A DNA stretch of 64,000 bases from a virus (IMGVR_UViG_3300023179_008905:12131-76130), one strand, 5' to 3'. Shown: positions 9,525 to 58,585, counted from the stretch's first letter. Translations and numbers: made by a program. The notes: generated by a model from the sequence alone, not told the origin.

Positions 9525-9528
9525 TTTT

Positions 9529-10368: not shown

Positions 10369-10378
10369 ATAATATTGT

Positions 10379-11468: not shown

Positions 11469-11479
11469 TAAATATTAAT

Positions 11480-11846: not shown

Positions 11847-11850
11847 ACAG

Positions 11851-11878
11851 TTGATTTTTTAAAAAATTCGCTTATAAT
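11851..11878 (+). promoter_or_regulatory. sigma70-like promoter TTGATT-N16-TATAAT for queD
   Basis: Near-consensus hexamers in an intergenic gap. Confidence 0.65.
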
Positions 11879-11906
11879 ATTAAGGATATAGAAAAGTAGA
11901 GTTCTG

Positions 11907-16723: not shown

Positions 16724-16739
16724 TGATGTAATATAAAAT
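16712..16739 (+). promoter_or_regulatory. sigma70-like promoter TTGAAA-N16-TAAAAT
   Basis: -10 ends 6 nt before GTG 16746. Confidence 0.55.
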
Positions 16740-16745
16740 AATCTT

Positions 16746-17183
16746 GTGCAAAGAAAGTACTTACCTACCTTTTCAGAATTAGTTGATAGACTTACAATAG
16801 TTTTACTTAAAAGTATTTTTATCCCTCAAAACAAATCTCAGTATAATCAGGAAATAAAAGATATTAAGCACGATATAGATCAAATAATTAATGATAAAAA
16901 TATTAAGCTAAATTCTGATATTATTAAATCAATTTGTATTATTATGCTTGCAAACCGATATATTTGGGAGAATGAAAGTAAATGTCGGTCTGGTGAATCA
17001 CAGGACTTATCTCTTCTTAAACTTACCCATTCAATTAACGGGGTAAGAAATACTGCAAAAAACATTTTAGCAAAAGAATTTAATGAAAGACAAGATCTTA
17101 AAATTGATTGCCTTGCTGCTGAACTTTTATCAGATTTTCAAAATTGGGATATTTTTAAAGATTATGAAGAAAAAACAAAATAA
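16746..17183 (+). CDS. helical hypothetical protein of glycan clusters (DUF6165/DUF4254-like)
   Basis: SELVDRLTI...ANRYIWENES...NGVRNTAKN pattern. Confidence 0.55.
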   Translation: MQRKYLPTFSELVDRLTIVLLKSIFIPQNKSQYNQEIKDIKHDIDQIINDKNIKLNSDIIKSICIIMLANRYIWENESKCRSGESQDLSLLKLTHSINGVRNTAKNILAKEFNERQDLKIDCLAAELLSDFQNWDIFKDYEEKTK

Positions 17184-17511
17184 ACAAACACCTCCAAACA
17201 TTCCTTTTAATGAATATTATAAAGGATATCTAAAGAAACATACAAACCTAATTAATCGTAGATTACATGTATTAGGTCAATTAACAACAATTGCTTATTT
17301 CCTTACTGTAACTTATTTGACAGTGAAAGTAAGCCTGGCGTTTGCTTTGTTATACCCTTTTACTTTATTTGTTGTTTACCCGTTTGCATGGTCGGGGCAT
17401 TTTTTCTTTGAAAAAAATAAACCCGCTGCTTTTAAAAATCCTTGGAAAGCTAAAGCAGCAGACTGGGTAATGTTAAAAGATATTCTTCTTGGAAGAATTA
17501 AATTATGGTGA
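17164..17511 (+). CDS. DUF962/Mpo1-like membrane protein
   Basis: YLKKHTNLINRRLHVLG, YPFAWSGHFFFEKNKPAAFKNP; ATG 17164 preferred. Confidence 0.85.
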   Translation: MKKKQNKQTPPNIPFNEYYKGYLKKHTNLINRRLHVLGQLTTIAYFLTVTYLTVKVSLAFALLYPFTLFVVYPFAWSGHFFFEKNKPAAFKNPWKAKAADWVMLKDILLGRIKLW

Positions 17512-18044
17512 GAACAAAAACAGACTATGTAAGTAATACGATTAAAGATTTATTGGTATTAAAGCCAGGAATCTTTCGTGATTATAGAGGAGAAAACGTT
17601 GAAACGTTTGATAAAGAATATAATCGTATTTCTTTAGCACACATTGATGAGTTTAGAAAAGAGAAATTAGAGTTTGTCGTAGATTCACTTTCCTTTTCTA
17701 GAAAAAATGTTCTTAGAGGATTCCATGGTGATACAAAAGCTTGGAAATTAGTTCAATGCATTCAAGGCAGCATTTACTTAGTAGTTATTGATACAAGAAA
17801 AGATTCTCCTACTTTTAAAAATATTGAAACATTTACTTTAGATGATAAAGATAGGCATCAAGTTCTCATTCCACGTGGTTGCGTTAATGCGCATTTATGC
17901 TTAACAGATACATGCACTTTTTTCTATAAATTAACACATGGCTATGTTAATCCTGAAGATCAAATTACTGTAAAATGGAATGATCCAAGTTATAATGTAA
18001 AATGGCCTATAGTTAACCCCATTTTATCATTAAGAGATTCATGA
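17505..18044 (+). CDS. rmlC: dTDP-4-dehydrorhamnose 3,5-epimerase family
   Basis: FRDYRG, SRKNVLRGFH, KLVQCIQGSIYLVVIDTRKDSPTF, WNDP. Confidence 0.85.
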   Translation: MVRTKTDYVSNTIKDLLVLKPGIFRDYRGENVETFDKEYNRISLAHIDEFRKEKLEFVVDSLSFSRKNVLRGFHGDTKAWKLVQCIQGSIYLVVIDTRKDSPTFKNIETFTLDDKDRHQVLIPRGCVNAHLCLTDTCTFFYKLTHGYVNPEDQITVKWNDPSYNVKWPIVNPILSLRDS

Positions 18045-18982
18045 AAATATTAATTACCGGTGGTGCAGGGTATATTGGGTGTAAGCTTACGCAAGCTTTA
18101 GCCGATCATTATAAGACTGAAAAAGTAATTGTTTACGATAATTTAATGTACAAGCAAGATGGACTTTTTTCACTTCTTAGTCACCCTAAGATTGAATTTG
18201 TCTACGGTGATGTAAGGGAAGAACAAAAACTATCTAAATTAGTTAAAGAAGCTGATATCGTTATTCCTCTTGCTGCTATAGTAGGGTTCCCTGCCTGTGC
18301 AAAAGATCCTGATACTGCTAACAAAGTAAATAATTTACAAATACAAAATATTATTAAATGGGCTAACAATGATACAAAAATAATTTACCCAAATACTAAT
18401 AGTGGCTACGGTGTTGGCGTAGAAGGTGAATTCTGTACAGAAGAAACACCTCTTAATCCTATCTCGGTTTACGGGGTAACAAAATGCGCGGCAGAAAAAT
18501 CAGTTCTCGATTTTGGGGGGATATCTTTTAGGCTTGCTACAGTATTTGGTGTCTCACCTCGCTTTCGAAAAGATCTATTAGTAAATAGTTTTGTCTTAAA
18601 AGCACTAACAGACAAATATATTGTTTTGTTTGAGAGTCATTTTAAACGTAATTTTATACATGTAAACGATGTTGTAAAAGCATTTATAGCAATGATACAC
18701 AACTATAATAATTACAAGGGTCAAGCTTTTAATGTTGGCTTATCTACTGCAAACCTTTCAAAGCTTGAATTGTGTGAAAAAATAAAACAATATATACCTG
18801 ATTTTGTTATAACAACTAACGAATTTAATACAGATCAAGATAAACGAAATTATATTGTAAGTAATGAAAAATTAGAGGCCATCGGTTGGAAGCCCGATTG
18901 TAGTCTAGATTATGGTATACAGGAGCTAATTAAAGCATATCCAGTTATTATAAATACGGATACTAAACATACTAACTTGTAA
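18041..18982 (+). CDS. NAD-dependent nucleotide-sugar epimerase/reductase (extended SDR)
   Basis: ILITGGAGYIG, YGVTK (YxxxK), FRLATVFG, RNFIHVND. Confidence 0.9.
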   Translation: MKILITGGAGYIGCKLTQALADHYKTEKVIVYDNLMYKQDGLFSLLSHPKIEFVYGDVREEQKLSKLVKEADIVIPLAAIVGFPACAKDPDTANKVNNLQIQNIIKWANNDTKIIYPNTNSGYGVGVEGEFCTEETPLNPISVYGVTKCAAEKSVLDFGGISFRLATVFGVSPRFRKDLLVNSFVLKALTDKYIVLFESHFKRNFIHVNDVVKAFIAMIHNYNNYKGQAFNVGLSTANLSKLELCEKIKQYIPDFVITTNEFNTDQDKRNYIVSNEKLEAIGWKPDCSLDYGIQELIKAYPVIINTDTKHTNL

Positions 18983-19008
18983 AAATTATAGCTTCACATA
19001 TATAATAT

Positions 19009-20505
19009 ATGAGTTTAGATTTACTTGTTATTCACCCCAACGCTGCTAAAAAAATTTATCAAGGGCTAAGTAAAAGTTTTTCTGCCAAAGAGCCACCCAT
19101 ATGGGCAGGGCTTATAGCTAATTACATACGTAAGCATGGTCATTCTGTACAAATTTTAGATTGTGAAGCATTAGAATATACTTTAGATGAAACACTTAGT
19201 GAAATAAGAAAACTTGATCCTAAGCTCGTGTGTACTGTAGCTTACGGTCAGCAGCCTTCAGCATCCACACAAAATATGACTGGTGCTTTAAGCTTAATGC
19301 AGAAAATTGGCGCCGAAACAAACATTCCTAGAGTTTTCTCTGGTCCTCACCCTTCATCTCTTCCTGAGCTTACTCTTAAGCAAGACCCGGGTTGCTATGT
19401 CTGTGAAGGGGAAGGCCCTAAAACAGTTTTACATCTGTTAGAAGCTATTAAAAATAATGAAAAAGATTTATCTAAAGTCCCGGGATTATGGTATAGTAGT
19501 GAAGCAGGTCCTATACGCAATGCACCAGCAACATTATTTAAAGATTTAGATAATGAACTACCTGGAGTTGCTTGGGATTTATTACCATTAGAAAAATATA
19601 GAACGGCTAATTGGCACAGTTGGACAAATAATAATAACACTCAGCCGTTTGCATCTATTTATACGAGCCTAGGCTGTCCTTTTCAATGCACGTTTTGTAT
19701 GATTAATGCTCCGTTTAACGACGGTGATATTAAGAATAATGCGTTCAGACACTGGTCTCCGGAATTTATAATTAAGCAGTTCGATTTTTTTGCAGAAAAA
19801 GGTATTAAGAATGTAAAGATAGCTGATGAAATGTTTGTTTATAAGCCTGCACATTTTATGAAGTTGTGTGAACTTATAATTGAACGTGGTTATAATTTTA
19901 ATATGTGGGCTTATGCACGTGTAGACACAATTAGAGAAAAATATCTCGAAACACTTAAAAAGGCCGGTGTAAATTGGCTGGGTATTGGTATTGAATCTGC
20001 TAATAAGCTTGTTCGTCAGGAAGTTACTAAGGGCAAGTTTCAGGAAGTTAATATTCGCGACATAGTAAAAAAGGTATCGGATTCCGGTATTTGTGTAGGT
20101 GGTAATTATATTTTCGGTCTGCCAGGTGATACACACGAAACTATGCAAGAAACGTTAGATCTCGCTTTAGACCTTAAAACAGAATATGCTAATTTTTACT
20201 GTGCTATGGCTTACCCCGGATCACAGCTTCATAGAGAAGCTGTAAAAAACCGTCCTCACGTATTACCTGAAAATAATGGAATTGGTTGGGTCGGTTATTC
20301 ACAACATGCTTTTGAAACATTTAATTTACCCACCGATAAATTAACTAATAAAGAAATTTTACAATTTAGAGATAAAGCTTTTGAAACATATTTTACTAAT
20401 CCGGACTATATAGCTAAAATGAAAGCAAAGTTTGGAGTTGCATTTGAAGAAGAATTAACTAGAATGTTAAGTATAAAGCTTGAAAGGAAGCTATTAACTG
20501 AATAA
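19009..20505 (+). CDS. cobalamin-dependent radical SAM enzyme (class B methyltransferase-like)
   Basis: N-terminal B12-binding domain (EPPIWAG...GPHPS...GEG), SLGCPFQCTFC, GIESAN, YIFGLPGDT. Confidence 0.9.
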   Translation: MSLDLLVIHPNAAKKIYQGLSKSFSAKEPPIWAGLIANYIRKHGHSVQILDCEALEYTLDETLSEIRKLDPKLVCTVAYGQQPSASTQNMTGALSLMQKIGAETNIPRVFSGPHPSSLPELTLKQDPGCYVCEGEGPKTVLHLLEAIKNNEKDLSKVPGLWYSSEAGPIRNAPATLFKDLDNELPGVAWDLLPLEKYRTANWHSWTNNNNTQPFASIYTSLGCPFQCTFCMINAPFNDGDIKNNAFRHWSPEFIIKQFDFFAEKGIKNVKIADEMFVYKPAHFMKLCELIIERGYNFNMWAYARVDTIREKYLETLKKAGVNWLGIGIESANKLVRQEVTKGKFQEVNIRDIVKKVSDSGICVGGNYIFGLPGDTHETMQETLDLALDLKTEYANFYCAMAYPGSQLHREAVKNRPHVLPENNGIGWVGYSQHAFETFNLPTDKLTNKEILQFRDKAFETYFTNPDYIAKMKAKFGVAFEEELTRMLSIKLERKLLTE

Positions 20506-40682: not shown

Positions 40683-42173
40683 ATGGCTAAACAAATTCGT
40701 CCTACACAGGCTTACATCGATGAATCTCGCGCTAAGGTATTGCTCGAGAAGTGGGGTCCAGTATTGGATTACACTTCGGACAATGTCCGCGCAATCGAAG
40801 ATGATCATACTCGTTTAAATACCGCCATCCTCTTGGAAAACCAGGAGAAGTGGTGTTTCGAAGCTAGTAATATCGCCGGTGGTTCCAGCTCTGTCTTTAA
40901 TCAGGCAGGCGCTGGGCTACCTAATGTTGGTGGTACAGGTGGAGTATTCCCCGGTTCCCCTAACGATACTTACGCTCCTAACGACACTCGTCTTCCTAAG
41001 ATTCTAATTCCGATGATTCGCCGTACGTTCCCTGAGTTGATCACCAACGAAATCGTTGGCGTTCAGCCCATGAGCGGTCCAGTAGGTCTCGCTTTTGCCC
41101 TCCGTTATAAGTACGAAGCTGATGCTTTAGGTTCTCAAGTTAACAGCGGTGATGCTGCTCCAAACGTCTCTGGTCCTACCAGTGGCTGGACAAACAAAGC
41201 CGATGGTGCAGAACTTGGCTATCAGTACCTCGACACAAGATACACAGGTCAGTCCGCCTCGGCCCTTTCGGGTCTAGGTACCGGAAGTGACTTTGAAATT
41301 CTTGGTCAGGACCAGGGTGTTGCTCAGTTACTAGCTAACTTTGAGTTAACATCAAAGATTCCTCAGATTGTCGTTTCTTTCGAAAAGACAGCTGTTGAAG
41401 CTGGTACTCGTAGGTTATCCGCTCGTTGGTCAGTAGAATTAGAGCAGGATCTTAAGAATATGAATGGCATCGATATCGATACCGAACTCACAAACGCAAT
41501 GTCTTATGAGTTGCAGGCCGAAATCGATCGTGAAATGATTATTCGCATGATCCAGACAGCTCTAAACGCCGGATACGGCACAGGTTACTCCGTATGGAGC
41601 CCTGTCTCCGCAGACGGCCGCTGGCTCGTTGAGCGTAATCGTGACTTCTATCAGAGACTAATCGTTGAGGCTAATCGTATTGCTGTTCGTAATCGTCGTG
41701 GTGCTGCCAACTTCGTTGTTGCTACACCTCGCGTTTGCGCAATCTTGGAAATGCTCCCTGAGTTTCAGTGGGCACCAGTCCAGGGCAATGTCAATACACA
41801 GCCCGTCGGTGTTGCAAAAGTAGGCTCGCTGGGTGGCAGGTTTAACGTTTATCGCGATACACGTACTGAAGCTCAAGCTGAAGCATCCACAGGTAATTTC
41901 CCTGCTGGTGCTACACGCTCGATTCGCTTAGAGTACGCCCTCCTTGGTTACAAGGGACCTGAATTCTACGACACTGGTATCATCTATTGTCCGTATATTC
42001 CGGTAATGGTTCAGAGAACTATTGGTCCTAACGATTTCTCCCCTCGTGTTGGTCTATTAACCCGTTATGGCGTTGTAGATAACATCTTCGGAGCTAATCT
42101 TTACTACCACGTAATTATTCTGAAGAATCTCGGTACTGCGTTTACCCCGGGAACTCAGTCGGTTTACTTCTAA
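40683..42173 (+). CDS. gp23: major capsid protein, T4 gp23-like
   Basis: LLEKWGPVL, LLENQ, IVGVQPMSGPVGLAFALR, AEIDRE, GYKG..YDTGIIYCPYIP, TRYG. Confidence 0.97.
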   Translation: MAKQIRPTQAYIDESRAKVLLEKWGPVLDYTSDNVRAIEDDHTRLNTAILLENQEKWCFEASNIAGGSSSVFNQAGAGLPNVGGTGGVFPGSPNDTYAPNDTRLPKILIPMIRRTFPELITNEIVGVQPMSGPVGLAFALRYKYEADALGSQVNSGDAAPNVSGPTSGWTNKADGAELGYQYLDTRYTGQSASALSGLGTGSDFEILGQDQGVAQLLANFELTSKIPQIVVSFEKTAVEAGTRRLSARWSVELEQDLKNMNGIDIDTELTNAMSYELQAEIDREMIIRMIQTALNAGYGTGYSVWSPVSADGRWLVERNRDFYQRLIVEANRIAVRNRRGAANFVVATPRVCAILEMLPEFQWAPVQGNVNTQPVGVAKVGSLGGRFNVYRDTRTEAQAEASTGNFPAGATRSIRLEYALLGYKGPEFYDTGIIYCPYIPVMVQRTIGPNDFSPRVGLLTRYGVVDNIFGANLYYHVIILKNLGTAFTPGTQSVYF

Positions 42174-42690: not shown

Positions 42691-43605
42691 TTACTGTCTT
42701 ACCGTCTTAGTAAAATACTTAAACTCGTCTATTAAAGCCGTATCTAATAAGCTATAGTTACTAGCTCTTGTTGGATTAATATCGATACCACCACGTCTTA
42801 CATATAGACAACTTACTACAAGCTCTTCTGGTTTAAACAATCTAAACAACCGCATATAAATTGTCTCACAAATCTCTTCATGAAAATGACATTCATCTCT
42901 AAATGAGACAATATACTGTAAAAGAGATGTCTGATTAATCTCATACTTTCCTTTATAATGAATATAAACATCGCCCCAATCAGGTTGTGAAGTTACCCTA
43001 CAATTACTTTTTAATAAAGCAGAATGAAATCTTTGTACTCTAGATTCAGGGATCTTTATTGCAGATAAAATAGAAGGATCCTCAGTATATGATTTAGATT
43101 GTATCATTGTAACATCAATATTATTTTCTAATGTAGGGTAGTCTTTATTCGAAAACACCGGGGGATAATACAAATCATCCGATACTGCTGCAGCAGATCT
43201 TACATAGACCTTCACATCTGTTTCCAAAAGATTAGATAGATCTCTTGCAATTGTATTTTGCAATTCATTTAAAACTTGAATCATATTACCTTTAAATACT
43301 TGCATGTTAAAAGAATTCATATATAGCTTAATAGATTTTGATTCAACTATATAATGGTTTTTACAAGGATAAACAATTTTAGCTATAGCGGCTATAGGCA
43401 TTCCTTCTGCAGTCAGGCACGATACTTCATATGCATTCCAAATATCATAACCACCAAACGGGGCGTTTTCATCAGTTATATCTAAATGCTTTCTATTATT
43501 AATTCTTGGTTCACGGACTAACAGAGAAGGGTCGTAAGTCGACTTATAACCAGTTACCTTACCTAAATGCTTTGAAATGTTACTATTATCTAATACCTTG
43601 TTCAT
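42691..43605 (-). CDS. queF: NADPH-dependent 7-cyano-7-deazaguanine reductase (two-domain type)
   Basis: GYDIWNAYEVS, IVESKSIKLYMNSFN, LLKSNCRVTSQPDWG, FHEEICE, RRGGIDINP; ATG 43605 preferred. Confidence 0.93.
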   Translation of the reverse strand: MNKVLDNSNISKHLGKVTGYKSTYDPSLLVREPRINNRKHLDITDENAPFGGYDIWNAYEVSCLTAEGMPIAAIAKIVYPCKNHYIVESKSIKLYMNSFNMQVFKGNMIQVLNELQNTIARDLSNLLETDVKVYVRSAAAVSDDLYYPPVFSNKDYPTLENNIDVTMIQSKSYTEDPSILSAIKIPESRVQRFHSALLKSNCRVTSQPDWGDVYIHYKGKYEINQTSLLQYIVSFRDECHFHEEICETIYMRLFRLFKPEELVVSCLYVRRGGIDINPTRASNYSLLDTALIDEFKYFTKTVRQ

Positions 43606-44170
43606 GTAGTTTAATTTTAATCTGTTCCATTCGTTCTTCAACTGTTCCTTTTAAAAACACTACTCTTTCTCTCCATGGGTGTTGATTAAGATAATAATTT
43701 TCATACTTATCGATAATTGCATCTCTAAACTCTATATCAATACTCCTCTCACCATCGCTAACTAAATTAATCTCATGAGGATTCGGATAAAATATAATAT
43801 CATACTTAGTAAAAAAATTATGCCAATAATTTTTCGCTTGATCGTATGATAATCTTGAAACCCGTCCCTTTTCAAAAAAGTATTCTGTATACACTAACCC
43901 ATCTAGTAAACATCTATCATGTACAGTACCCTTACACCATCCACCCATACTACCGCATGTAAACAAATTCTTTAGTTCCTCGTTTATTATTAAAAGCTGT
44001 GTTACATCACTTGCACCCTCTTCATTAATCGGTACGTTACATTCATCTCTTATTTTCCTAGTAACTTCGTTAATATAAAAGAATTTATCAAATATACCTC
44101 CACTGCTTCTCATTGTCTTAAGCAATGTCGTTTTACCAGAGCACTGAGGACCTGTAAACGTAATATTCAT
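43586..44170 (-). CDS. P-loop nucleotide kinase-like protein (AAA_28/NadR-like)
   Basis: FTGPQCSGKTTL, HDRCLLDGLVYT, DGERS, GTVEERM. Confidence 0.75.
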   Translation of the reverse strand: MNITFTGPQCSGKTTLLKTMRSSGGIFDKFFYINEVTRKIRDECNVPINEEGASDVTQLLIINEELKNLFTCGSMGGWCKGTVHDRCLLDGLVYTEYFFEKGRVSRLSYDQAKNYWHNFFTKYDIIFYPNPHEINLVSDGERSIDIEFRDAIIDKYENYYLNQHPWRERVVFLKGTVEERMEQIKIKLHEQGIR

Positions 44171-44319
44171 TTCTTATTCCAATCAACACCAAATAAAAGA
44201 TTTTTTAATATCTTTATTTCTTCTAAAAATACTTTATTTTCTTGCTCAAGCTCAGCCAAAAGAATCTTCAATCTCTTGACTTCATCATTCTTTTTTCGAA
44301 AAATATCTAATAAAGACAT
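44167..44319 (-). CDS. 50-aa coiled-coil protein (not in ORF track)
   Basis: MSLLDIFRKKNDEVKRLKILLAELEQENKVFLEEIKILKNLLFGVDWNKK; ATGA overlap with the kinase gene; own promoter. Confidence 0.6.
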   Translation of the reverse strand: MSLLDIFRKKNDEVKRLKILLAELEQENKVFLEEIKILKNLLFGVDWNKK

Positions 44320-44324
44320 ACTAT

Positions 44325-44353
44325 AGTATAAATGACTTTTTATTATTAATCAA
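44325..44353 (-). promoter_or_regulatory. sigma70-like promoter TTGATT-N17-TATACT
   Basis: -10 ends 5 nt before ATG 44319. Confidence 0.6.
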
Positions 44354-44354
44354 G

Positions 44355-44702
44355 CTATTTACACCACTTTTTTCTTTTCACAATTTCAGCAATTATACAG
44401 TATACCGATGTATCACTAAATGCATCAAAGATAGGCTCATTAGCAGATTCAAACGTCTTCTTACGCAATACTAAATTAATTAAACGCTGAATTTTATCGT
44501 TAAGTCGAACTACGATTGCAGAAATAGAGGCAATAATATCTTCTTTCTTGTGTAAATCAGATCCCAGGCTTATGTTGTGCGGCCCGTAATCAAATTGCTT
44601 CTTACAGAATGTTTCGTATTGCTCTTTTTGAATCTTTTTAAATTCCTCGCAAGTCTCAGGATACGTAGACTCTACACTTTTAATATAATCTTCCGGGTTC
44701 AA
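44355..44702 (-). CDS. DUF1599/Nmad1 nucleotide-modification-associated protein
   Basis: FCKKQFDYGPHNI...VRLNDKIQRLINL...EPIFDAFSDTSVYCII. Confidence 0.8.
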   Translation of the reverse strand: MNPEDYIKSVESTYPETCEEFKKIQKEQYETFCKKQFDYGPHNISLGSDLHKKEDIIASISAIVVRLNDKIQRLINLVLRKKTFESANEPIFDAFSDTSVYCIIAEIVKRKKWCK

Positions 44703-45670
44703 ATTCTTACTCCGTAACCAATCTTATTTAAATTAAGAGCATTTAAATTGCAACCCCCAGCATAGCTGATTGCGCTCTGAAGATCTTGAGTTATTTCTAA
44801 TAGCTTTTCATCGTAAGTAAATGAATCGGTTTCCATAAGCTTCATTGTACCTTCTATGTTCTTTTTATCAATCTTATTATGTATACTAGCAGAACCGTAA
44901 TACTGTTTATACCGTCTCCCGTTAGTATCTTTTACAACCGGTGCAGGGCTATCCGTACAAGCAGCAAATATAGATCCGCACATAACCATACTAGCCCCAG
45001 CGACTAGCGCTTTAGCTATATCACCGTTGCAGCGAACTCCACCGTCTGCAATAATAGGTACATCAATATCTGAATTATAATTATTTGCACACTCCATAAC
45101 GCAGCTAAACATAGGATATGTAAACCCGGTTTTGTCTTTAGTAGTACATGCATGACCACCACCGATACCAACTTTAACTGCATCAGCACCTGCAAGGGCA
45201 AGATATTCAACACCTTTACGTGTAGCTACATTACCAGCTATTATCTTTGTTTCAGGTAGTTTATTTTTAATAAACTTTACTTGGTCAGCAACTTTAGCAT
45301 GATGCCCATGAGCCACATCAATTGTAATAAAATTTACTCTTAATTTATGTCGAGATATATTGTCAATTAACGCTTTATCTTTTTCCTGTATCCCTACACT
45401 TATAGATACATAATTGAAAAAAGCTTCATTTGCATCTCTTACAAACGCAAAAATATCGTGATCAAACCGATGCATAACATAAAAGTAATATTTCGAATCT
45501 AACGCTTGACAAATATCAAAATCTATGCAGCATTTCATATTTGCTGGGATAACTGGAAGACGAAAATTTTTATCTAAAAACTTTACCTCTGTACTAATTT
45601 CTGCCCTCGTCTTAACCGAATTAAAATTAGGCTTAAGAAAAACGTTTTCGTAATGCAGAGAAATGTCCAT
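44699..45670 (-). CDS. guaC: GMP reductase
   Basis: PVIPANM, YVMHRF, TIDVAHGH, IAGNVAT, VKVGIGGGHACTT, IIADGG, YYGSAS, DLQSAISYAG; no CBS domains. Confidence 0.9.
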   Translation of the reverse strand: MDISLHYENVFLKPNFNSVKTRAEISTEVKFLDKNFRLPVIPANMKCCIDFDICQALDSKYYFYVMHRFDHDIFAFVRDANEAFFNYVSISVGIQEKDKALIDNISRHKLRVNFITIDVAHGHHAKVADQVKFIKNKLPETKIIAGNVATRKGVEYLALAGADAVKVGIGGGHACTTKDKTGFTYPMFSCVMECANNYNSDIDVPIIADGGVRCNGDIAKALVAGASMVMCGSIFAACTDSPAPVVKDTNGRRYKQYYGSASIHNKIDKKNIEGTMKLMETDSFTYDEKLLEITQDLQSAISYAGGCNLNALNLNKIGYGVRI

Positions 45671-45671
45671 A

Positions 45672-46241
45672 CTAGCGATTTAAAATATTATATGCTTTAA
45701 AAAAGCTTTTCCACAAATCAAATGCAACGTCATGTAAAATATTATAGACTTCATTTAATGTTTTACTCTCTATCGATACCCCTTGACTCATCATAATTTC
45801 ACCCTCATCAACTTCAGGCACTACTTTATGAATAACGCAACCAGCTAATTTATAGCCATTTACAAACGCTCTCTCCTGAGGATTAAACCCTTTTAGAGAC
45901 GGGTACTTGTCAATAAGCCCGGGGTGTAGATTATATATTTCATATTTTTCACATATTTCTTTTGGAACAATACGTAAATAGCCGTGTAAAGTTATAACTG
46001 GATTTTTAAATTTAGATAATACTTCTGTATAATCTTCTAAAGAAGGTTTTAGAGGTAACATATACCATATAGTTTGATTGAGTTTATGCTCTCTAAAAGT
46101 AGTTGTACGAAGCAAATCTTTATTTACATTATCCGTTGTAATTTTATTAGTAACGATAGCATCAGGATAAACTTCTAAGGCTTTACAGAGATTATTAATT
46201 TCTGTACCGGTCTGTGAAAAAAACGCTACCCAAGGTCTCAT
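45672..46241 (-). CDS. PurN-like formyltransferase, candidate preQ1 formyltransferase (DpdN-like)
   Basis: FFSQTGT, LHGYLRI, YNLHPG, GCVIHKVVPEVDEGEI; in an operon with TGT-like gene and near queF. Confidence 0.8.
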   Translation of the reverse strand: MRPWVAFFSQTGTEINNLCKALEVYPDAIVTNKITTDNVNKDLLRTTTFREHKLNQTIWYMLPLKPSLEDYTEVLSKFKNPVITLHGYLRIVPKEICEKYEIYNLHPGLIDKYPSLKGFNPQERAFVNGYKLAGCVIHKVVPEVDEGEIMMSQGVSIESKTLNEVYNILHDVAFDLWKSFFKAYNILNR

Positions 46242-47050
46242 CTATATAAAATGCGCTTAAACATTTTAACATTATAATTTAAAATTTCCAATTGATCTGG
46301 TGTAAATTGATGCTCTATTAAATCTGCTAATTTTGTCTTAGGTTTAGTCTGTAGACCGTATTCTGCATCATAACGCATATTATGAATAGCTGCGACTACA
46401 GGGTTACTCGTATCACAACTTACAATATTATATACATTTTTATCAACATAAAATCTAAACTCTTTTGCAAGAGAGCAGCCTAATAAATGATGAGGCTTAT
46501 TCCATTCCCATAACCCTGATTCAATTAAATCTGTAATAAATCTCTGTCGTCCTGAACAAAACCTTTCTAGCTCAGTATTACCCTCACCTATTGTTTGATA
46601 ATAACTAAAATCAAAACTTATAGCTACCATGTCAGCATCAAATGACATAAAACGATAACAGTTTTTTAATTCTTGCCATGTCTTACCCTGTACTGCTCCA
46701 ATAGCTTTAGTCTGAAATGATGATTTTAAATCCTTAGCTTTATCTCTAAAGCTTAAAAAACTCACCATCGTTTCTTGCGAATTTTCCAAAACATCTGGAA
46801 CAATAAACATACTAGGCTCAAGATCTTTTGCGGCTTGATAAAACATTTGCGGATCAAAAGCTTTTCCAAGCTCAAATATTGAATTATCGAGCAATACTTC
46901 TCTGTTATATGTATTTTTGGAGGCTTTAAAAAAATTATAATATTCTGGATATTTTTGAAAAAGATGAACTAATGCATAGTCAAAATCATTATATTTTCTT
47001 GATTGTTCTAATAATGAAATAGGAGATTCATGAGATACTTTCAATAGCAT
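46238..47050 (-). CDS. TGT-fold 7-deazaguanine transglycosylase-like protein (DpdA3-like)
   Basis: LLDNSIFELG, PDVL, GAVQG, HHLLG, SCDTSNP correspond to TGT/DpdA barrel motifs. Confidence 0.7.
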   Translation of the reverse strand: MLLKVSHESPISLLEQSRKYNDFDYALVHLFQKYPEYYNFFKASKNTYNREVLLDNSIFELGKAFDPQMFYQAAKDLEPSMFIVPDVLENSQETMVSFLSFRDKAKDLKSSFQTKAIGAVQGKTWQELKNCYRFMSFDADMVAISFDFSYYQTIGEGNTELERFCSGRQRFITDLIESGLWEWNKPHHLLGCSLAKEFRFYVDKNVYNIVSCDTSNPVVAAIHNMRYDAEYGLQTKPKTKLADLIEHQFTPDQLEILNYNVKMFKRILYR

Positions 47051-47056
47051 AATTAT

Positions 47057-47084
47057 ATTATAAATGTAAATAATACTATATCAA
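47057..47084 (-). promoter_or_regulatory. sigma70-like promoter TTGATA-N16-TATAAT
   Basis: -10 ends 6 nt before ATG 47050; overlaps a plus-strand TAAATA for the gp5-like gene. Confidence 0.65.
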
Positions 47085-47085
47085 C

Positions 47086-49935
47086 ATGAAGTATCCAAAA
47101 TACTATGGTCATTATCTAGGTATTGTAGTTCAAAATAATGATCCTGATAAAAGGGGCAGAGTTAAGGTGTTTGTACCACATATCTCTCCAACTGTTTATA
47201 AGAAATGGAATGAAGCTGTAAAAGACAAGAAATTTAAATTTATAGGTAAAAACGTAGGTAGCGATATAACAGATGTAACGGATGATTTAAAGAAAATTCT
47301 ACCATGGGCAGAAATTGCAGCACCGCTGGCAGGTGAAAGTAGTAGCGGTAGATTTAATGCTTATAAAAATATTGGAACAATTAGTGATTCGAGTAGCTTA
47401 AGCGGTTCTATTTCTAATACACAAAACAGCGAGATAGATGTTTCAAAATTAGATTATTTTTCTCCAAATCTTGACAACATAGGTGAAAAGCCAGGTAATA
47501 TATTTGATATATCCTACTACAAGCTGAAAGATGCGTTCAGCGTTCCAGCAGAAACAAATGTTAATAATGCTAATAAATTTAGCTATAATTATACACCAGA
47601 ATGCTATAGTAACTGCGCGCGTGGTTCTTTTCCTCTTTTAAACGTAGGTTCTCACGTGTGGGTATTTTTTCATAATGGTGATGCTCTTAAGCCTATTGTT
47701 TTTGCTGCAGCATTTGGTACCGAAGATTGGAAAAGTATTTCAAATATTCCTACTACTAATGCAATAGAACTATCTGCAGCAAAAAGCCCGGGTGTAGATT
47801 ACCCCGGTGCTTATGAAAATAGAAGCTCTGTTTCTAGTCAAGAATACGATATTAATGTTGAAACTTATAGGAATAAATATGTAATTAATCAAAAAGGCGG
47901 TACTATATCATTTGTAAATACTGATAATAGAGAAGCTTTAAAACTAACACATTATTCTGGTTCATTTAAAGAGTTTAATAATTTTACTAATACAGAATTA
48001 GCTACTAATAATGATCAAAAATTAGTTTTAAATGATCAATTTTTAACTGTAAGAGGTTCCAGAAACGAGTATACACAACTGGATTACGATAACGTTACTA
48101 AAGGAGATGTGTATAGAAAAATAGGAGATTTAAATAGAAATTTACATTTACAATGGAAATCTATAGTTCAAGAAATAGCTGATGTAAAACAATTATTTGA
48201 TATTCAAAGAGCAGAAAAAGCGGTTTCTGAAAATGGCATGCTCTTAACGTCACCGCTTCAAACACAAGCTTCTGGTGGGTTTGATAACTGCCCTGTGTGT
48301 AATAAAAATATAAACTCTTATTTTTCAGTTAATAATTCATATAGTAATAATTTTAATTTAAAGCTTTTTCCAAGTCTAGCTGATAGCGGTGGTAATTATA
48401 TATTTGGTAATACGCTAACACCAGATGGTATAATGGGTAGCTTAGACTTTGTCGGCTCACTAGGCGCACCTCAATTTGGTCCCCCTACACAGGTTTTAGG
48501 TAATTCAGGTGATGGTTCTTCTGATCCTAATAAACCAGGAACTATATTTGGGGTTACTTGCCCTGCATGCGGTGGAACAGGAAAAAGCCCTAGTTCACTT
48601 GGTGGTAATTGGCCACCCGATCCTAAAAAACAAAATTTAAATAATTTAATTAAAAGTAAAATACAAGATCTTGCTAAAATAGAAAAAGATATGGGTCTAG
48701 GGGGTAGTGAGATTATAGAAATTACAAAACATAAAATAGAAACGATCGGCACAGTAATGAACGATTTTGGTAGCATAAGAGTAGATATGAAAGGTAAAAT
48801 GTATATCTCAGATGTACAGGTGGGTAAATACGGAACATTTTATAATAGAAAACCTTCACCCCTCGTAGAGCTAGTACATGTAGATGATCTGCCTGGTGGT
48901 AATTATACTCTAAACGTTTGTAATAGATATAATGTAATGGTTGGAGCTGGAGGCTTAAATCTTAAATCTTACGGACCAGTTAACATTAGTGGATCTCTTA
49001 CTAACATTGCAGGCAAGCAAGTAAATATAGGTAGTGAACTAGAAACCAATATTGATGGTGGTCGTCGATTATCTCTAGTTGCAGATATCATAAGCTTGAG
49101 GCAAAGAAACAAAGAGCAAGTAGTTGTAGAGGGGTCATTAGGAATTACAAATAATTTAATAGTAGCGGGCGGTCTGCACGTAGAAGGTGAGTTTACTGCT
49201 AACCACATTACTATGCCTACTGAAGTACAGGCTACGGAGGAGACAAATGTATTTGCTGCAGCTACAACAGATGAGAGTAATATGAATGGTAAAATAATTG
49301 GATTTGCTGTTCCTCTATCAAATTATGCTACTGTTAAAAATGCTAAGGATAAATCATTTAAAGAAAACACTAAAAAAGATACCGGAGCACCTTACTTAGG
49401 CTATACTGATGCATCAGTAGTCGCTGGTCGGCTTAAAAAAGATGAAAATATAGGTTATTTAAAATCTGGGCAAATTATAGGCTATATAAAGCAAACAGAC
49501 ATTGCATCTATAATTGCACCATCAACCGGTGGTGCGTGTTCCTCTACAGTAAACATTCCCATCTATTGCTCTACAAATATTGCAACAGATACAGATGTAT
49601 CGGTAAAAGCATCTAGTACAGGTAGCTCTACCAACTCTAAGGACACGCCAGTATATGGATCAGGACCGGGTGGTAATGCAGATCTTGCAGGCGGTACAGT
49701 TAGAGGCAGTATTAAGGGTGCAGATACAGGCGCTGGTGGTAAAGATCCCATGCAAATGCCTATAGTCGTGTATGGTTCCGGTCGTGATAGAGATAGTATT
49801 TACGTAGAAAAACACTCGCACATGTTTAAAGGATTACCTTCTACTCTTACAAATACTAATGCACAGACTAGAGAAAAAATATCTGGCAAGCTAGCCCCAC
49901 TAAATTCAGAAGTAGTTGCAAATTACAAGAAATAA
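47086..49935 (+). CDS. baseplate hub/central spike, gp5/VgrG-like
   Basis: YLGIVVQNNDPDKRGRVKVFVP OB-fold, VGSHVWVFFHNGD, LTHYSGSFKEF, beta-helix repeats, C-terminal HSH. Confidence 0.8.
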   Translation: MKYPKYYGHYLGIVVQNNDPDKRGRVKVFVPHISPTVYKKWNEAVKDKKFKFIGKNVGSDITDVTDDLKKILPWAEIAAPLAGESSSGRFNAYKNIGTISDSSSLSGSISNTQNSEIDVSKLDYFSPNLDNIGEKPGNIFDISYYKLKDAFSVPAETNVNNANKFSYNYTPECYSNCARGSFPLLNVGSHVWVFFHNGDALKPIVFAAAFGTEDWKSISNIPTTNAIELSAAKSPGVDYPGAYENRSSVSSQEYDINVETYRNKYVINQKGGTISFVNTDNREALKLTHYSGSFKEFNNFTNTELATNNDQKLVLNDQFLTVRGSRNEYTQLDYDNVTKGDVYRKIGDLNRNLHLQWKSIVQEIADVKQLFDIQRAEKAVSENGMLLTSPLQTQASGGFDNCPVCNKNINSYFSVNNSYSNNFNLKLFPSLADSGGNYIFGNTLTPDGIMGSLDFVGSLGAPQFGPPTQVLGNSGDGSSDPNKPGTIFGVTCPACGGTGKSPSSLGGNWPPDPKKQNLNNLIKSKIQDLAKIEKDMGLGGSEIIEITKHKIETIGTVMNDFGSIRVDMKGKMYISDVQVGKYGTFYNRKPSPLVELVHVDDLPGGNYTLNVCNRYNVMVGAGGLNLKSYGPVNISGSLTNIAGKQVNIGSELETNIDGGRRLSLVADIISLRQRNKEQVVVEGSLGITNNLIVAGGLHVEGEFTANHITMPTEVQATEETNVFAAATTDESNMNGKIIGFAVPLSNYATVKNAKDKSFKENTKKDTGAPYLGYTDASVVAGRLKKDENIGYLKSGQIIGYIKQTDIASIIAPSTGGACSSTVNIPIYCSTNIATDTDVSVKASSTGSSTNSKDTPVYGSGPGGNADLAGGTVRGSIKGADTGAGGKDPMQMPIVVYGSGRDRDSIYVEKHSHMFKGLPSTLTNTNAQTREKISGKLAPLNSEVVANYKK

Positions 49936-50230: not shown

Positions 50231-50458
50231 TTATTGTTGAGCGAGCTTATTTTTTAAATTATCAAATATAATTTTTTTATCGTCTAATGCTTGAGCTTTA
50301 AGTACATCTATCATTCTTAAAACAACATCTAATCTAAGCATTTTTAAATAATCATATTTTATTTCTAAACCGATACATGCAAGAAACCTTTCACAAATAA
50401 AAAATAAAACAGATAATTCTTCTTCAGTTAATTCTTTTAATGTATGGCTATAAATCAT
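50231..50458 (-). CDS. hypothetical protein
   Basis: 75-aa ORF with ATGA overlap to the nrdB stop. Confidence 0.65.
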   Translation of the reverse strand: MIYSHTLKELTEEELSVLFFICERFLACIGLEIKYDYLKMLRLDVVLRMIDVLKAQALDDKKIIFDNLKNKLAQQ

Positions 50459-51519
50459 AGTTCAATATCTTCAAAAACACTTTCAGATATATTTGTATCT
50501 CTTGCACCTATCTTGTAAGTAGAGATTTCTGTCTCTTGTGGAGCAACCTGTACTTTGCTTGAATCAAGATAACTATCTAACCATCCTGAAATTGGATTTT
50601 CTTTTTGATTAAATATCTTTTTATATCCTAAAGAACGCAACCGATTATCACACAACCATTTAGAATACCCTCCTAGAACTTCAGCGTTTAATCCTAGTAA
50701 TGACCCTTTACTAAAAAGATATTGCGCCCATTCAATTTCATTTTTTGCGGCTTGCTCGTAGAATGCATAAATTTTATCTTCACTTTTTTTAACAATAGAT
50801 GCAAACCCTTCCTTATCTTCATCGCGTAAAATTTTTATTAAATTTTGTGTAATTGCAAAATGCTGAGCTTCATCACGTTGAATAAATTTTATAATCTTTG
50901 CATTACCTTCCATTTTACCGCGATATCCAAAATAAAAACTACAGGCAAAGCTTACATAAAATACTAACCCTTCCATAACATTTACGGATAAGATACAATC
51001 AAATATTTTTTGTTTTAAATCTTTCTTTGTATCGTCTCCTAAGATTTTATCAAAATTATTTCTAATTAACTCTGCTCTACTTACAATATCTTTATCTTCC
51101 ATTATACTATCAAAAAAATTAGATGCGTCCGGGTGTACATTATTTAAGAGGTAAGAATAACTATAACTATGTATACCTTCAAACCGCTGCCATGTATTCA
51201 TGCAAATCTCTAGTTCTGGGTTGCTCACATAATCTTTTAAAGAATGAATACTTCTAGATAGCATTGAATCTCCTAAAGTTTGAAATTTTAAGTTTGTATC
51301 AAATACAAACCGCTCTTCTCCTTTAAGCTCTCTATAATCTCCTCTATCTTTTTGAAGAGATATTTCATGAGGCCACCAAAAAAATTCTTCCTGTTTTTTA
51401 AACAATTCAAAGAACGTAGGGTATTTAAATTTATCGTATCTCTGTAAATTTAAATCTTCACCAAAAAAAAGAGGCTGTTTGGTGTGATCAATGTTTTTTA
51501 TATTTAAAACAGACTTCAT
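50455..51519 (-). CDS. nrdB: ribonucleotide reductase class Ia beta subunit
   Basis: FFWWPHEI, FQTLGDS, EGIHSYSY, EGLVFYVSFA, RDEAQH, VAPQETE. Confidence 0.95.
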   Translation of the reverse strand: MKSVLNIKNIDHTKQPLFFGEDLNLQRYDKFKYPTFFELFKKQEEFFWWPHEISLQKDRGDYRELKGEERFVFDTNLKFQTLGDSMLSRSIHSLKDYVSNPELEICMNTWQRFEGIHSYSYSYLLNNVHPDASNFFDSIMEDKDIVSRAELIRNNFDKILGDDTKKDLKQKIFDCILSVNVMEGLVFYVSFACSFYFGYRGKMEGNAKIIKFIQRDEAQHFAITQNLIKILRDEDKEGFASIVKKSEDKIYAFYEQAAKNEIEWAQYLFSKGSLLGLNAEVLGGYSKWLCDNRLRSLGYKKIFNQKENPISGWLDSYLDSSKVQVAPQETEISTYKIGARDTNISESVFEDIEL

Positions 51520-51531
51520 AAGGAGGTAATA

Positions 51532-53796
51532 TTATAGCTTACAAGCACCGCTAGAGCAATCATTATTCTCTTTTTGTGTTATAAGTTGTTCTTTATCGCC
51601 ATCATCTGTATTATTATAGTATAAAGATATTAAACCTAGACTATAAGCATACATTATTTCTTTCATTACCTTGCTATCTGGTAATACATTATTTTCATAA
51701 TGACTGTAATTATAATACAAATTCGTTGATATAGCCATGTCAATATATTTTTGTATAACGGCGTTTAAATTTATGATTCCCGTATTATCCTTAAAATCAA
51801 ACGCAAAATTGTAATGATTATCAAACTTACCTATACCCGGTACAAGTACGGGAAGTTTTCCCATCTTTGACATTTTATATGTTACTAAAGAACGAACGGG
51901 CTCAACACCATTGGTAGAACTTTGAATCACAGAACTCGATTCACATGGCATACAGCAAGATAACGTCGAATGTCTTAATCCGTGTTTTTTTATTTCTTGT
52001 CTTAATTCTTCCCAGTTATGTGTTAGCTTTCTCTTATAAATAGAATCTATTTTTTTCTTGTAAGTGTCTATTGGTAAAATTCCTTTAGAATATTTTGTTG
52101 CATTAAATTTTTCACATTTACCTTTTACTTTTGCTAAATTAAGACTAGACTTTAACAAATAATATTGAAAATGTTCCATCCATTCATCCATTAAAACTAA
52201 AGCATTCTTTGATTCATATGATGCATTATTTTTTGCAAGGTAAGCTGCAAGATTAGTTATACCTATTCCTAAGCTCCTACGTTTTTTAGCAAAATTTTCT
52301 GCTGCTTTGTTAAAATAATATTGTATATCTATTATTTCATCCAAAAATCTAACAACTAAATCTACAGTTTTTTCTAGATCTTTCCAGTCTCTGATTTCTA
52401 ACATATTTATGGCAGATAGTATACACATGCCTATTTCACCATCTGGGTCATTAAAATCTTTAATTGGTATAGTAGGGTGAATAACTTCTGTACAAAGATT
52501 ACTCATTGTAACCTGATCTAACCAAGAAGTATGTTCATTAGCGGTATCAACATTTAAAACGTAAATTCTACCAGTTTCCACTCTTTCTTTAATTATTAAA
52601 GAAAATAATTTTCTAGCAGAAACTTTTTTCTTAAACTTTATTTTTCTATCGTTTTCACACTCCTCGTAAATTTTGTTAAATTTAGAAGTACCCCATGCAT
52701 TATAAAGATGAGGAACTTCACCGGGGCTAAAAAGAGTAACAGTTTCATTCTTAATTACCCTATCATAAAATAATTTAGACATTCCAACGGTGTAATCGAG
52801 CTTTCTGACTCTATTATCATCAGTACCAGCATTATTTTTTAAAACAACAATGTCTTCAATTTCATAATGCCACCATTGAACATTAATAGTAGCGGATCCA
52901 CCGCGTAATCCGTTTTGTTGCCATGCTTTTACAGATGCTTCGTATATTTTTAAAAACGGTATAAGCCCTGTATGTACAACTTCGCCATTACCGATTGGAG
53001 ATCCTAGAGCTCTTATCTTAGACACGTCAACACCAATACCACATCTATTGGCTGTTGCTAACGACACTGCAGTACCAGATGCTGTTATCGATTCTTTTGT
53101 GTCGTCGACACCTATAAGACAGCAACTAGCATAATTACGTGAAAGTGTACGTACACCAGCCATAACTGGAGTAGGTAAATTTATTTTATGTCTAGAAATT
53201 GCATTATAAAATCTTCTTACTAATTCTATACGCTCACCGTTATCATAGTTCATAAAAGCATACATTGAAATTAAAATATATGCAAACTGCGGCGTTTCAA
53301 AAATTTTATTAGTTACTCTATTTTTTACTAGATATTTGTCACATAATTGTTTCAATCCAGAATATGTAAATATAAAATCTCTTTCATGATCTAAGAATTC
53401 ACCAATTTTATTAATTTCATCTTCAGAATATTTTTCTATTATTACTGGGTCATAAATCTCTTTACGTAAGCCTAGATTTATTACATCAAGCAATCTAGGA
53501 GCATGTTTTCCGCCCCACACATCTTTTCTAAGCTGATAGCACAGTAAGCGACCTGCAACATACTGATAGTTAGGTTTACTTAAAGAAATTAAATTTGCAG
53601 CAGATTCTATTAAAACCTGATGTATGTCTCTAGTGGAAATATTCTCGACTATGTTTAACTTAGCATTAATTTCTATTTCTGACAAACTAACGCCAGATAT
53701 ACCGTCGGTAGCCCAGCGTATAACTTTATTAATTTTTTCAATATTAAATTTCTCTAGCTCTCCGTTACGTTTTTTAACAAATGTTTGTGCGCTCAT
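51532..53796 (-). CDS. nrdA: ribonucleotide reductase class Ia alpha subunit with ATP cone
   Basis: VKKRNG ATP cone, ETPQ, PTPVMAGVRT, ASCCL, SNLCTEV, MPCESSS, C-terminal CSSGACKL. Confidence 0.95.
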   Translation of the reverse strand: MSAQTFVKKRNGELEKFNIEKINKVIRWATDGISGVSLSEIEINAKLNIVENISTRDIHQVLIESAANLISLSKPNYQYVAGRLLCYQLRKDVWGGKHAPRLLDVINLGLRKEIYDPVIIEKYSEDEINKIGEFLDHERDFIFTYSGLKQLCDKYLVKNRVTNKIFETPQFAYILISMYAFMNYDNGERIELVRRFYNAISRHKINLPTPVMAGVRTLSRNYASCCLIGVDDTKESITASGTAVSLATANRCGIGVDVSKIRALGSPIGNGEVVHTGLIPFLKIYEASVKAWQQNGLRGGSATINVQWWHYEIEDIVVLKNNAGTDDNRVRKLDYTVGMSKLFYDRVIKNETVTLFSPGEVPHLYNAWGTSKFNKIYEECENDRKIKFKKKVSARKLFSLIIKERVETGRIYVLNVDTANEHTSWLDQVTMSNLCTEVIHPTIPIKDFNDPDGEIGMCILSAINMLEIRDWKDLEKTVDLVVRFLDEIIDIQYYFNKAAENFAKKRRSLGIGITNLAAYLAKNNASYESKNALVLMDEWMEHFQYYLLKSSLNLAKVKGKCEKFNATKYSKGILPIDTYKKKIDSIYKRKLTHNWEELRQEIKKHGLRHSTLSCCMPCESSSVIQSSTNGVEPVRSLVTYKMSKMGKLPVLVPGIGKFDNHYNFAFDFKDNTGIINLNAVIQKYIDMAISTNLYYNYSHYENNVLPDSKVMKEIMYAYSLGLISLYYNNTDDGDKEQLITQKENNDCSSGACKL

Positions 53797-58126: not shown

Positions 58127-58585
58127 TTATTCTATGTTACTGGCTTCCCAAGGAAAGTCAAGCCAAATATTGTCGTCAAAATTTTTAACATAAAAATTTG
58201 GAATAAATTTAGTAGAAGTTTTTATATACAAAGTAGCAAATTTATAATTTATAAATTCATTTAAATCAAAATATTCTTTTACAAAAGTTAATGTACTACC
58301 TTTGTCAGACAAATCGTCAAAAATTATTACTCTTTTATTTCTAAAATCAGAATTAAATTTTAATCCAGGTATTTGTGATACTTTCGGTTCTTCTGATTTT
58401 TTCTCCCTATAGCTAGTTATACCAAAATTAAAGAGGGGTGTCTTTAGTATATGTGATAATATTACCCCGGGAGCTAATCCACCTCGACCTAACGCTACAA
58501 TTACATCGCAAGGTCCTATTTTTAAAGCCAAAAGCTGACAGTCTTTTTCTATAATATCCCAAGATAGCTTTAAATTTTCTGCCAT
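58127..58585 (-). CDS. type I phosphoribosyltransferase (xanthine-guanine PRT-like)
   Basis: LSWDII, VALGRGG, VIIFDDLSDKGSTL PRPP loop, WLDFPWE. Confidence 0.85.
   Translation of the reverse strand: MAENLKLSWDIIEKDCQLLALKIGPCDVIVALGRGGLAPGVILSHILKTPLFNFGITSYREKKSEEPKVSQIPGLKFNSDFRNKRVIIFDDLSDKGSTLTFVKEYFDLNEFINYKFATLYIKTSTKFIPNFYVKNFDDNIWLDFPWEASNIE

Follow-up and report, generated by a model that had tools for sequence, protein, structure and literature searches.

Positions 42691 to 47050 of a 64,000-nucleotide stretch of the viral contig IMGVR_UViG_3300023179_008905 (the window hereafter; bases 12131-76130 of this 76,130-bp IMG/VR contig, for which CheckV estimated a completeness of 35%) hold a minus-strand operon that is, close to certainly, a freshwater-clade version of the DpdA3/DpdN system for fdPreQ1, the core of which is already a published kind. 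Since its set of DpdA3 and DpdN resembles that of the Flavobacterium phage immuto, it should yield fdPreQ1 at high substitution, predicted to replace most or all of the guanine (G). In immuto DNA, Cui, Hutinet et al. (NAR 2023, PMC10516641) measured no dG and 345,000 fdPreQ1 for every million nucleotides. We lean, with little more than even confidence, towards the reading that the operon makes fdPreQ1 with base exchange on free deoxynucleosides or deoxynucleotides. DpdA3 and DpdN were named by Cui et al. (2023), who nowhere mention the kinase, the GMP reductase or DUF1599 (PMC10516641). To that published kind this locus adds a GMP-reductase-like gene (GuaC) inside the operon, the equivalence of a gene slot held by DUF1599 or PF18909 proteins, a second kinase (Kin2) beside QueE, and DpdA3-QueF fusions.

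The operon and its fdPreQ1 genes

Seven open reading frames (ORFs) ran head to tail from 47050 to 42691, all of them present as the preliminary description of this DNA had reported; neighbours abutted or overlapped and no internal terminator-like site was detected. In operon order, they are as follows.

46238-47050, minus strand: DpdA3-type 7-deazaguanine transglycosylase, 270 aa, assigned by immuto/CP220 homology and by its tRNA-guanine transglycosylase (TGT) fold
45672-46241, minus strand: DpdN, PurN-family formyltransferase, 189 aa (Pfam Formyl_trans_N, E 1.6e-16)
44699-45670, minus strand: type-2 GMP-reductase-like protein (GuaC), 323 aa, accessory (NF003966, 1YPF)
44355-44702, minus strand: DUF1599/Nmad1-family protein, 115 aa, phrog_1485, family assigned through homologues
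44167-44319, minus strand: 50-aa ORF, doubtful gene
43586-44170, minus strand: Kin1, nucleoside/nucleotide-kinase-fold P-loop protein, 194 aa (AAA_28; phrog_2107)
42691-43641, minus strand: bimodular QueF (preQ0 to preQ1), with QueF_N and QueF domains (TIGR03138, 266 bits)

Homology and domain matches agreed with the earlier calls of a TGT-fold gene, a PurN-like formyltransferase, a P-loop kinase and queF. The arrangement is not a product of chance, since the same order recurred in dozens of independent metagenomic contigs. A megablast search of the operon against phage genomes gave no match.

The window DpdA3 was 43% identical to that of immuto and 45-47% identical to those of the Campylobacter CP220 group, in alignments (E 1e-52 to 1e-54) that covered more than 90% of the length. 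Its AlphaFold2 model (pLDDT 91) had the TGT fold, with bacterial and human TGT at TM 0.65-0.70 (E 1e-8 to 1e-9). The motifs LDNS, PD, HLLG and DTSNP were invariant, as were D55, D86 and D213; from motif order only, we infer that the invariant aspartates are equivalent to TGT D102/D280. Homology to the DpdA3 of fully replaced phages, the TGT (beta/alpha)8 fold and the co-encoded 7-deazaguanine genes place the protein in the DpdA3 subfamily, as a minimal TGT-fold transglycosylase according to its predicted structure.

DpdN aligned with its immuto counterpart over 96% of the length at 46% identity; after it, the best cultured matches were cyanophage PurN (36% over 45%). Among 15 homologues, N104 and H106 were invariant and D145 nearly so, which matches the Asn/His/Asp triad of PurN, and the N-terminal FFS-x-(T/S)-G-(S/T)-E loop aligned with the SG-x-GSN loop of PurN in 3KCQ. 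Its gene adjoins that of DpdA3 and is co-encoded with FolE-QueF. Formyl transfer by DpdN to the 7-aminomethyl group is a prediction, as it is in the original paper (PMC10516641). The likeness to a Flavobacterium phage set of DpdA3 and a PurN paralogue, which had been noted earlier, was borne out by these immuto homologues, 43-46% identical.

The remaining genes for preQ1 lie elsewhere on the contig.

7936-8589, minus strand: FolE, GTP cyclohydrolase I (PF01227, E 5.6e-49)
11907-12620, plus strand: QueD-like protein, 237 aa (PF01242; phrog_2389, E 5e-35)
13413-14156, plus strand: QueE-like radical SAM protein (phrog_2076, E 1.4e-42; Fer4_12; weak match to immuto QueE)
contig bases 350-1099, outside the window: QueC

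With QueF in the operon, all five genes of the previously proposed FolE-QueD-QueE-QueC-QueF route to preQ1 are thus on the contig. The true start of QueF is probably the ATG at 43605. The QueD-like protein was about 90 aa longer than usual at its C-terminus, and the extension gave only a weak NikR-like match.

Kinases, hydrolases and GuaC beside DpdA3

We surveyed 80 viral loci with DpdA3 52-86% identical; these loci are mutually related, and the counts given below are therefore not counts of independent events. The kinase was present in 76 loci, QueF in 74, DpdN in 57, DUF1599 in 45 and GuaC in 24. Three layouts corresponded to clades on the DpdA3 tree: layout A, DpdA3-DpdN-(GuaC)-DUF1599-Kin-QueF, which includes the window; layout B, DpdA3-Kin-QueF; and layout C, DpdA3-DpdN-[two small ORFs]-[117-150 aa]-Kin-QueF. 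Presence of the additional genes was nested in the 76 loci with DpdA3 and the kinase: 22 had no extras, 11 DpdN only, 22 DpdN and DUF1599, and 21 all three, so that DUF1599 never occurred without DpdN.

A few loci carried further genes. In L009, the operon was of layout A except that DpdA3 and DpdN were separated by a gene (8810-10393, plus strand) for a flavin-dependent halogenase of 527 aa (Trp_halogenase PF04820, E 2e-75), possibly a sign of a halogenated derivative of 7-deazaguanine. In L020, a radical-SAM/SPASM gene of about 440 aa (11446-12765, plus strand) separated the kinase from QueF, and L033 had at the same position a 441-aa ORF, the likeness of the two being one of size and position only.

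Two proteins, P0122 (566 aa) and P0123 (531 aa), were natural fusions of an N-terminal DpdA3, 45% identical to that of the window, with a bimodular QueF, and therefore place DpdA3 directly after the synthesis of the free preQ1 base. The search of longer proteins for DpdA3 fusions returned QueF fusions and no kinase fusion; the sizes of kinase fusions fall in the near-length band, in which the top 120 matches were all of about 270 aa. The 80 DpdA3 were all acidic (median isoelectric point, pI, 5.7), as were DNA-acting DpdA from 9g, PaMx25 and others (pI 5.5-6.7), and net charge and pI were dropped as uninformative for telling the two apart.

The Kin1 gene, found beside DpdA3 in 76 of the 80 related loci, also adjoins DpdA3 in immuto and CP220, whose orthologues were 31% and 34% identical, respectively. 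Homologues among 50,697 phage records were confined to Campylobacter and immuto phages, that is, to groups with DpdA3. The AlphaFold2 model of Kin1 (pLDDT 89) aligned in VIA-align with NadR ribosylnicotinamide kinase at Z 18.9 (root-mean-square deviation 2.6 over 176 residues) and with dCK/dGK at Z 16.5-17.5, and in the Foldseek list thymidylate kinases came after nucleoside kinases. The modelled structure is that of a small-molecule kinase fold, unlike the DpdB/ParB-type ATPase partner. A search of Kin1 against PDB sequences returned chance matches only (beta-2-microglobulin, leucine-rich-repeat proteins), as did that of the DUF1599-like profile. Complex prediction for DpdA3 and Kin1 gave a score of 0.00, which speaks neither for nor against binding. 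A second kinase gene lies next to QueE.

14158-14895, plus strand: Kin2, second AAA_28/dNK-like kinase (AAA_28, E 1.4e-9; dNK, E 2.6e-4; phrog_2107)

Kin2 is a paralogue of Kin1 encoded directly after QueE and recurred in the relatives G001-G003, directly beside QueE in G001 at least. The contig thus encodes two kinases, as anticipated, both with a nucleoside-kinase fold and closely linked with DpdA3 and QueE, respectively, which makes them candidates for a dedicated kinase of the modified nucleoside or nucleotide.

The family of the 115-aa protein was established by transitivity. The protein itself gave no match to Pfam DUF1599 (PF07659) at E<=0.01, and a six-frame search of the contig gave none at E<=10. 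Of a scanned set of 13 family members, made up of the window protein and 12 homologues 36-74% identical, PF07659 did match 10 (best E 2.3e-10), and 26 of its 30 nearest ESM-Atlas clusters carried DUF1599 (Atlas features score 0.96). The initial assignment to DUF1599 therefore stands through homologues which match the family model, although the window protein does not. The motifs K..DYG, R.NDK..R and E...D...D were invariant in the family.

In 45 of the 80 loci, the DUF1599 gene was directly upstream of the kinase gene. In layout C, the ORF in that position was PF18909; Pfam scans of five such proteins gave E 1e-19 to 1e-22, and a profile built from them found the family in 9 of the 10 layout-C loci. 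The sole exception (L056) had a cupin-domain gene (PF07883, E 4e-10; 6974-7423, plus strand) between DpdA3 and DpdN. The slot before the kinase is thus held by a DUF1599 protein in layout A and by PF18909 in layout C, position alone being shared. Experiments on Z-genome phages have shown that PF18909 (DUF5664) hydrolyses dATP, dUTP and dGTP, with dNMP as the product (PMC12884076). By this positional equivalence only, the DUF1599 protein is a plausible candidate dGTP hydrolase. In the other lineages, immuto gp208, directly upstream of DpdA3, was PRA-PH/MazG-like, CP220 gp055 was an HD domain fused to a kinase domain, and in phiST the five-gene block that contains DpdA3 also includes a MazG/dUTPase-like gene (PMC10516641); the phiST DpdA3 was not found by tblastn, and its context was taken from that paper only. 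A dNTP-hydrolase-type gene was therefore beside or close to DpdA3 in each lineage examined, with the exception of the layout-B loci. The small ORF that had been listed between DUF1599 and the kinase is present, but its status as a gene is doubtful: it recurred in only 5 of the 80 loci and had no family match.

The GuaC-like protein aligned over its full length with the B. anthracis GMP reductase 1YPF, its best PDB match (E 4e-71). It scored below the cut-offs of its best NCBIfam model, NF003966 (327.4 bits against 344), and of TIGR01306 (287.7 against 465.7). The motif GGGHACTTK, with the C-T-T-K catalytic Cys loop, and the ribose-binding IADGG are kept, and no CBS insert is present. Because the catalytic loop and IADGG are kept, the sequence suggests that the substrate is a ribonucleotide, GMP. 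GuaC was confined to one layout-A subclade, required at least five gains, losses or moves on the DpdA3 tree, and occurred in three forms: in the operon, upstream of the baseplate hub gene (about 50% identity), and as a 29%-identical form in L064. Many phages without DpdA3 also have GuaC-like genes (among them Bacillus phage G, Cr30, Xoo-sp13, phiYS40, cr108_1 and Mel-JY01). Draining of GMP to IMP had been advanced as a pool-control step of the pathway; the gene is present and GMP-reductase-like, but that role is weakened by its occurrence in about one third of the loci and one subclade, its absence from immuto and CP220, and its presence in phages without deazaguanine systems. GuaC is plausibly an optional purine-pool accessory rather than a defining step, and a sink for guanine released by DpdA3 and salvaged by a phosphoribosyltransferase (PRT).

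In Microcystis phage Mel-JY01 (L087) and crAss-like phage cr108_1 (L088), neither of which had a DpdA3 match at E<=1e-5, DUF1599-like and GuaC-like genes were 2-4 kb apart, surrounded by replication genes in the former and by nucleotide-metabolism genes in the latter. The pair may be a module of its own.

Base exchange on free nucleotides or in DNA

The route to 100% substitution is disputed: one group has favoured a modified dGTP, and the later DpdA3 paper an exchange in DNA. The former was proposed earlier for Campylobacter phages, as related in PMC6884629. We consider a pre-replicative mechanism the better supported, by a modest preference that draws entirely on gene context and published analogies. 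Exchange would take place on a free deoxynucleoside or deoxynucleotide and not on finished DNA. A hydrolase would lower dGTP and supply dGMP or dG, the candidate here being the DUF1599 protein and elsewhere PF18909, a MazG-like or an HD protein. DpdA3 would swap guanine for preQ1, DpdN would formylate the aminomethyl group, and Kin1, perhaps with Kin2, would rephosphorylate the product. Host Ndk would then make the triphosphate and the phage family-B polymerase would incorporate it. The released guanine would be salvaged to GMP by PRT, and GuaC, where present, would divert this GMP to IMP and prevent its return as dGTP, as an optional extra outside the core. The contig encodes a candidate PRT and a ribonucleotide reductase (RNR).

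58127-58585, minus strand: type I PRT, candidate for guanine salvage (PF00156, E 1.1e-11; phrog_8995)
50455-53796, minus strand: class I RNR, with NrdB at 50455-51519 (Ribonuc_red_sm) and NrdA at 51532-53796 (Ribonuc_red_lgC, ATP cone)

That DpdA3 is the first TGT-superfamily enzyme to exchange guanine for preQ1 on dG or dGMP, and that the operon is a complete pre-replicative pathway with a PRT/GuaC sink, we regard as an even bet.

We favour exchange on free nucleotides because of the linkage of DpdA3 with the kinase, the nucleoside-kinase fold, and the dNTP-hydrolase genes beside or close to DpdA3. An enzyme that hydrolyses dGTP fits such a route since dGTP hydrolysis would oppose a polymerisation of G first, and the QueF fusions tie DpdA3 to the free preQ1 base. 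Further support comes from published work: DpdA3 phages show 100% replacement compared with 30% or less for DNA-acting DpdA, DpdA3 could not be reconstituted in an E. coli plasmid assay that works for other DpdA families, and the ADG nucleoside was detected in infected cells (all PMC10516641). The neighbours of DNA-acting DpdA, which are ParB-like or sliding-clamp genes and not kinases, support it as well.

Comparison with known systems sets out what is shared. Immuto encodes orthologues of DpdA3, DpdN, the kinase and QueF, arranged as they are here, together with the full preQ1 pathway, and both phages are myoviruses; identity is only 43-46%, the immuto polymerase is of family A whereas the window phage is T4-like with family B, and the operon described here adds GuaC and DUF1599 between DpdN and the kinase where immuto has its PRA-PH/MazG-like gene upstream of DpdA3. 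The Campylobacter Firehammervirus CP220, with dADG (Crippen et al. 2019, as cited in PMC10516641 and PMC6884629), shares a 45-47% identical DpdA3 and the adjoining orthologous kinase (34%). In contrast to the window, it lacks QueF and DpdN, its final base is ADG, and in its putative hydrolase the HD domain is joined with a second kinase domain. In PurZ0 phages, the dZTP route starts with DutZ/DUF5664, which takes dNTP to dNMP, and DmtZ then exchanges the base on dAMP to give dZMP (NAR 2026, PMC12884076). Its resemblance to the proposed route (hydrolysis of a canonical dNTP, base swap on the mononucleotide, rephosphorylation) is a functional analogy only; the PF18909 hydrolase family is found also in the sister DpdA3 operons, not in that of the window, and the exchange enzyme is NDT-fold rather than TGT-fold and replaces A, not G. 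DNA-acting DpdA1, DpdA2 and bDpdA (9g, CAjan, Salmonella Dpd) belong to the TGT superfamily and have the same upstream preQ0 pathway. Unlike DpdA3 (258-270 aa), they are 296-352 aa long, gave no match to the DpdA3 of the window at E<=1e-5, have neighbours of another kind and give only partial replacement.

Several points weigh against exchange on free nucleotides. To our knowledge, every characterised TGT-superfamily enzyme acts on a polynucleotide, and the substrate of DpdA3 and the activity of DUF1599 are predictions. A common kinase fold does not give the substrate. By hhalign, the DUF1599 family matched PF18909 with a probability below 1% and gave nothing significant against the immuto PRA-PH/MazG, and the layout-B loci (DpdA3-Kin-QueF) had no hydrolase within 8 kb. 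GuaC was absent from the immuto and CP220 DpdA3 neighbourhoods, and neither phage was among the GuaC matches listed; draining of GMP by GuaC would, moreover, compete with the need of FolE for GTP. The mutual relatedness of the surveyed loci also belongs here. Finally, the only paper on DpdA3 proposed post-replicative insertion for all 7-deazaguanine modifications (PMC10516641).

According to that post-replicative model, the polymerase makes G-containing DNA, DpdA3 replaces every G of the duplex by preQ1, which DpdN then formylates within the DNA, and the kinases, DUF1599, GuaC and PRT only tune pools or recycle guanine. Besides having been put forward by Cui et al. (2023) for all DpdA families, it agrees with the TGT fold of DpdA3, known members of which act on polynucleotides, with the failure of net charge to separate DpdA3 from DNA-acting DpdA, and with the layout-B operons without a nearby hydrolase. 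It leaves unexplained both the nucleoside-kinase-fold gene tied to DpdA3 in all lineages and the dGTP-hydrolase-type genes of these operons, and the low replacement by DNA-acting DpdA and the failure of DpdA3 in the E. coli plasmid assay speak against it; we consider it possible, yet rather unlikely. We are similarly doubtful that GuaC and DUF1599 are general purine-balancing auxiliaries of an AT-rich phage (about 32% GC), brought into the operon by chance and without a link to deazaguanine. The many phages that have GuaC-like genes without DpdA3, the distance of only a few kb between DUF1599-like and GuaC-like genes in Mel-JY01 and cr108_1, where genes for replication or nucleotide metabolism surround them, and the restriction of GuaC to one subclade with its forced changes on the tree would all be expected from such a role. 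Nevertheless, DUF1599 was never found without DpdN in the 76 loci and always occupied the slot before the kinase, which in the sister clade is held by a proven dNTPase family, and GuaC reached the neighbourhood in three different forms.

A ribonucleotide route, in which PRT would join preQ1 to phosphoribosyl pyrophosphate, the kinases and RNR would make dPreQ1TP, and DpdA3 would have another task (tRNA modification or mopping up residual G), appears highly improbable. PRT, class I RNR and two kinases are indeed on the contig, and the immuto PRT lies inside its deazaguanine cluster. The operon and the PRT of the window are, however, 11 kb apart, and only 10 of the 80 loci had a homologue of the immuto PRT near DpdA3. 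DpdA3 is the universal signature of complete replacement (PMC10516641), and its QueF fusions put it directly after preQ1 synthesis.

For all complete 7-deazaguanine genomes, exchange on free nucleotides would, if true, overturn the post-replicative model now in print, and it would represent a new reaction type for the TGT superfamily and an enzymatic route to 7-deaza-dGTP analogues. The locus and its relatives form a compact testable set of four to seven small proteins, whose conserved partners (the nucleoside-type kinase, the hydrolase slot and the QueF fusions) point to candidate substrates, namely dG, dGMP and dGTP versus DNA. The DpdA3 family, with 3006 clusters of homologous proteins at E<=0.001, is very abundant in lake and marine viromes, and G-free phage genomes may therefore be common in nature.

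Setting of the operon and further observations

Among the sequencing runs listed, the stretch occurred in one lake-water metagenome, probably its source, as assembled Illumina-type contigs, and in no RNA run. The phage is uncultured. It is a T4-like myovirus, and the upstream part of its contig encodes a family-B polymerase and a UvsX-like protein of the RecA family. A tRNA scan of the whole window found none. The operon is wedged between two structural genes, with a promoter-like site at its head.

40683-42173: gp23 major capsid protein
47086-49935: baseplate hub gene
47057-47084, minus strand: sigma-70-like promoter TTGATA-16-TATAAT, 11 of 12 consensus positions, a consensus match only

This site was the best in the region and lies within the 35-nt divergent gap shared by DpdA3 and the baseplate hub gene. 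Its -10 hexamer ends 6 nt before the DpdA3 ATG, which implies a nearly leaderless transcript. The predicted promoter would yield such a transcript of early type, in contrast to the late capsid and baseplate genes.

Full replacement of G by 7-deazaguanine defeats many restriction enzymes with G-containing sites, as for immuto (PMC10516641). Two nucleases had also been proposed in the window as means of destroying unmodified host DNA. The ORF at 100-540 encodes a GIY-YIG nuclease that resembles both SegE and EndoII; EndoII is not separable here from a Seg-type homing enzyme, so that only the general call of a nuclease stood. The PD-(D/E)xK call for the ORF at 2510-3739, with no Pfam or PHROG match, was not confirmed.

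A sugar-nucleotide island was present at 15908-20505 on the plus strand, with a GT2 glycosyltransferase, a dTDP-4-dehydrorhamnose 3,5-epimerase, an NAD-dependent epimerase/dehydratase and a 498-aa B12-binding radical SAM protein.

Gene 038 of Bacillus phage BSTP12 (L106, MW354678) is annotated as NadR, yet it was DpdA3-like (profile E 7e-19). Around it (genes 038 and 039 were noted), a 187-aa Walker-A protein precedes the DpdA3-like gene, with QueD and two FolE upstream and PolA downstream. This gene may represent a further DpdA3 lineage in Bacillus siphophages.

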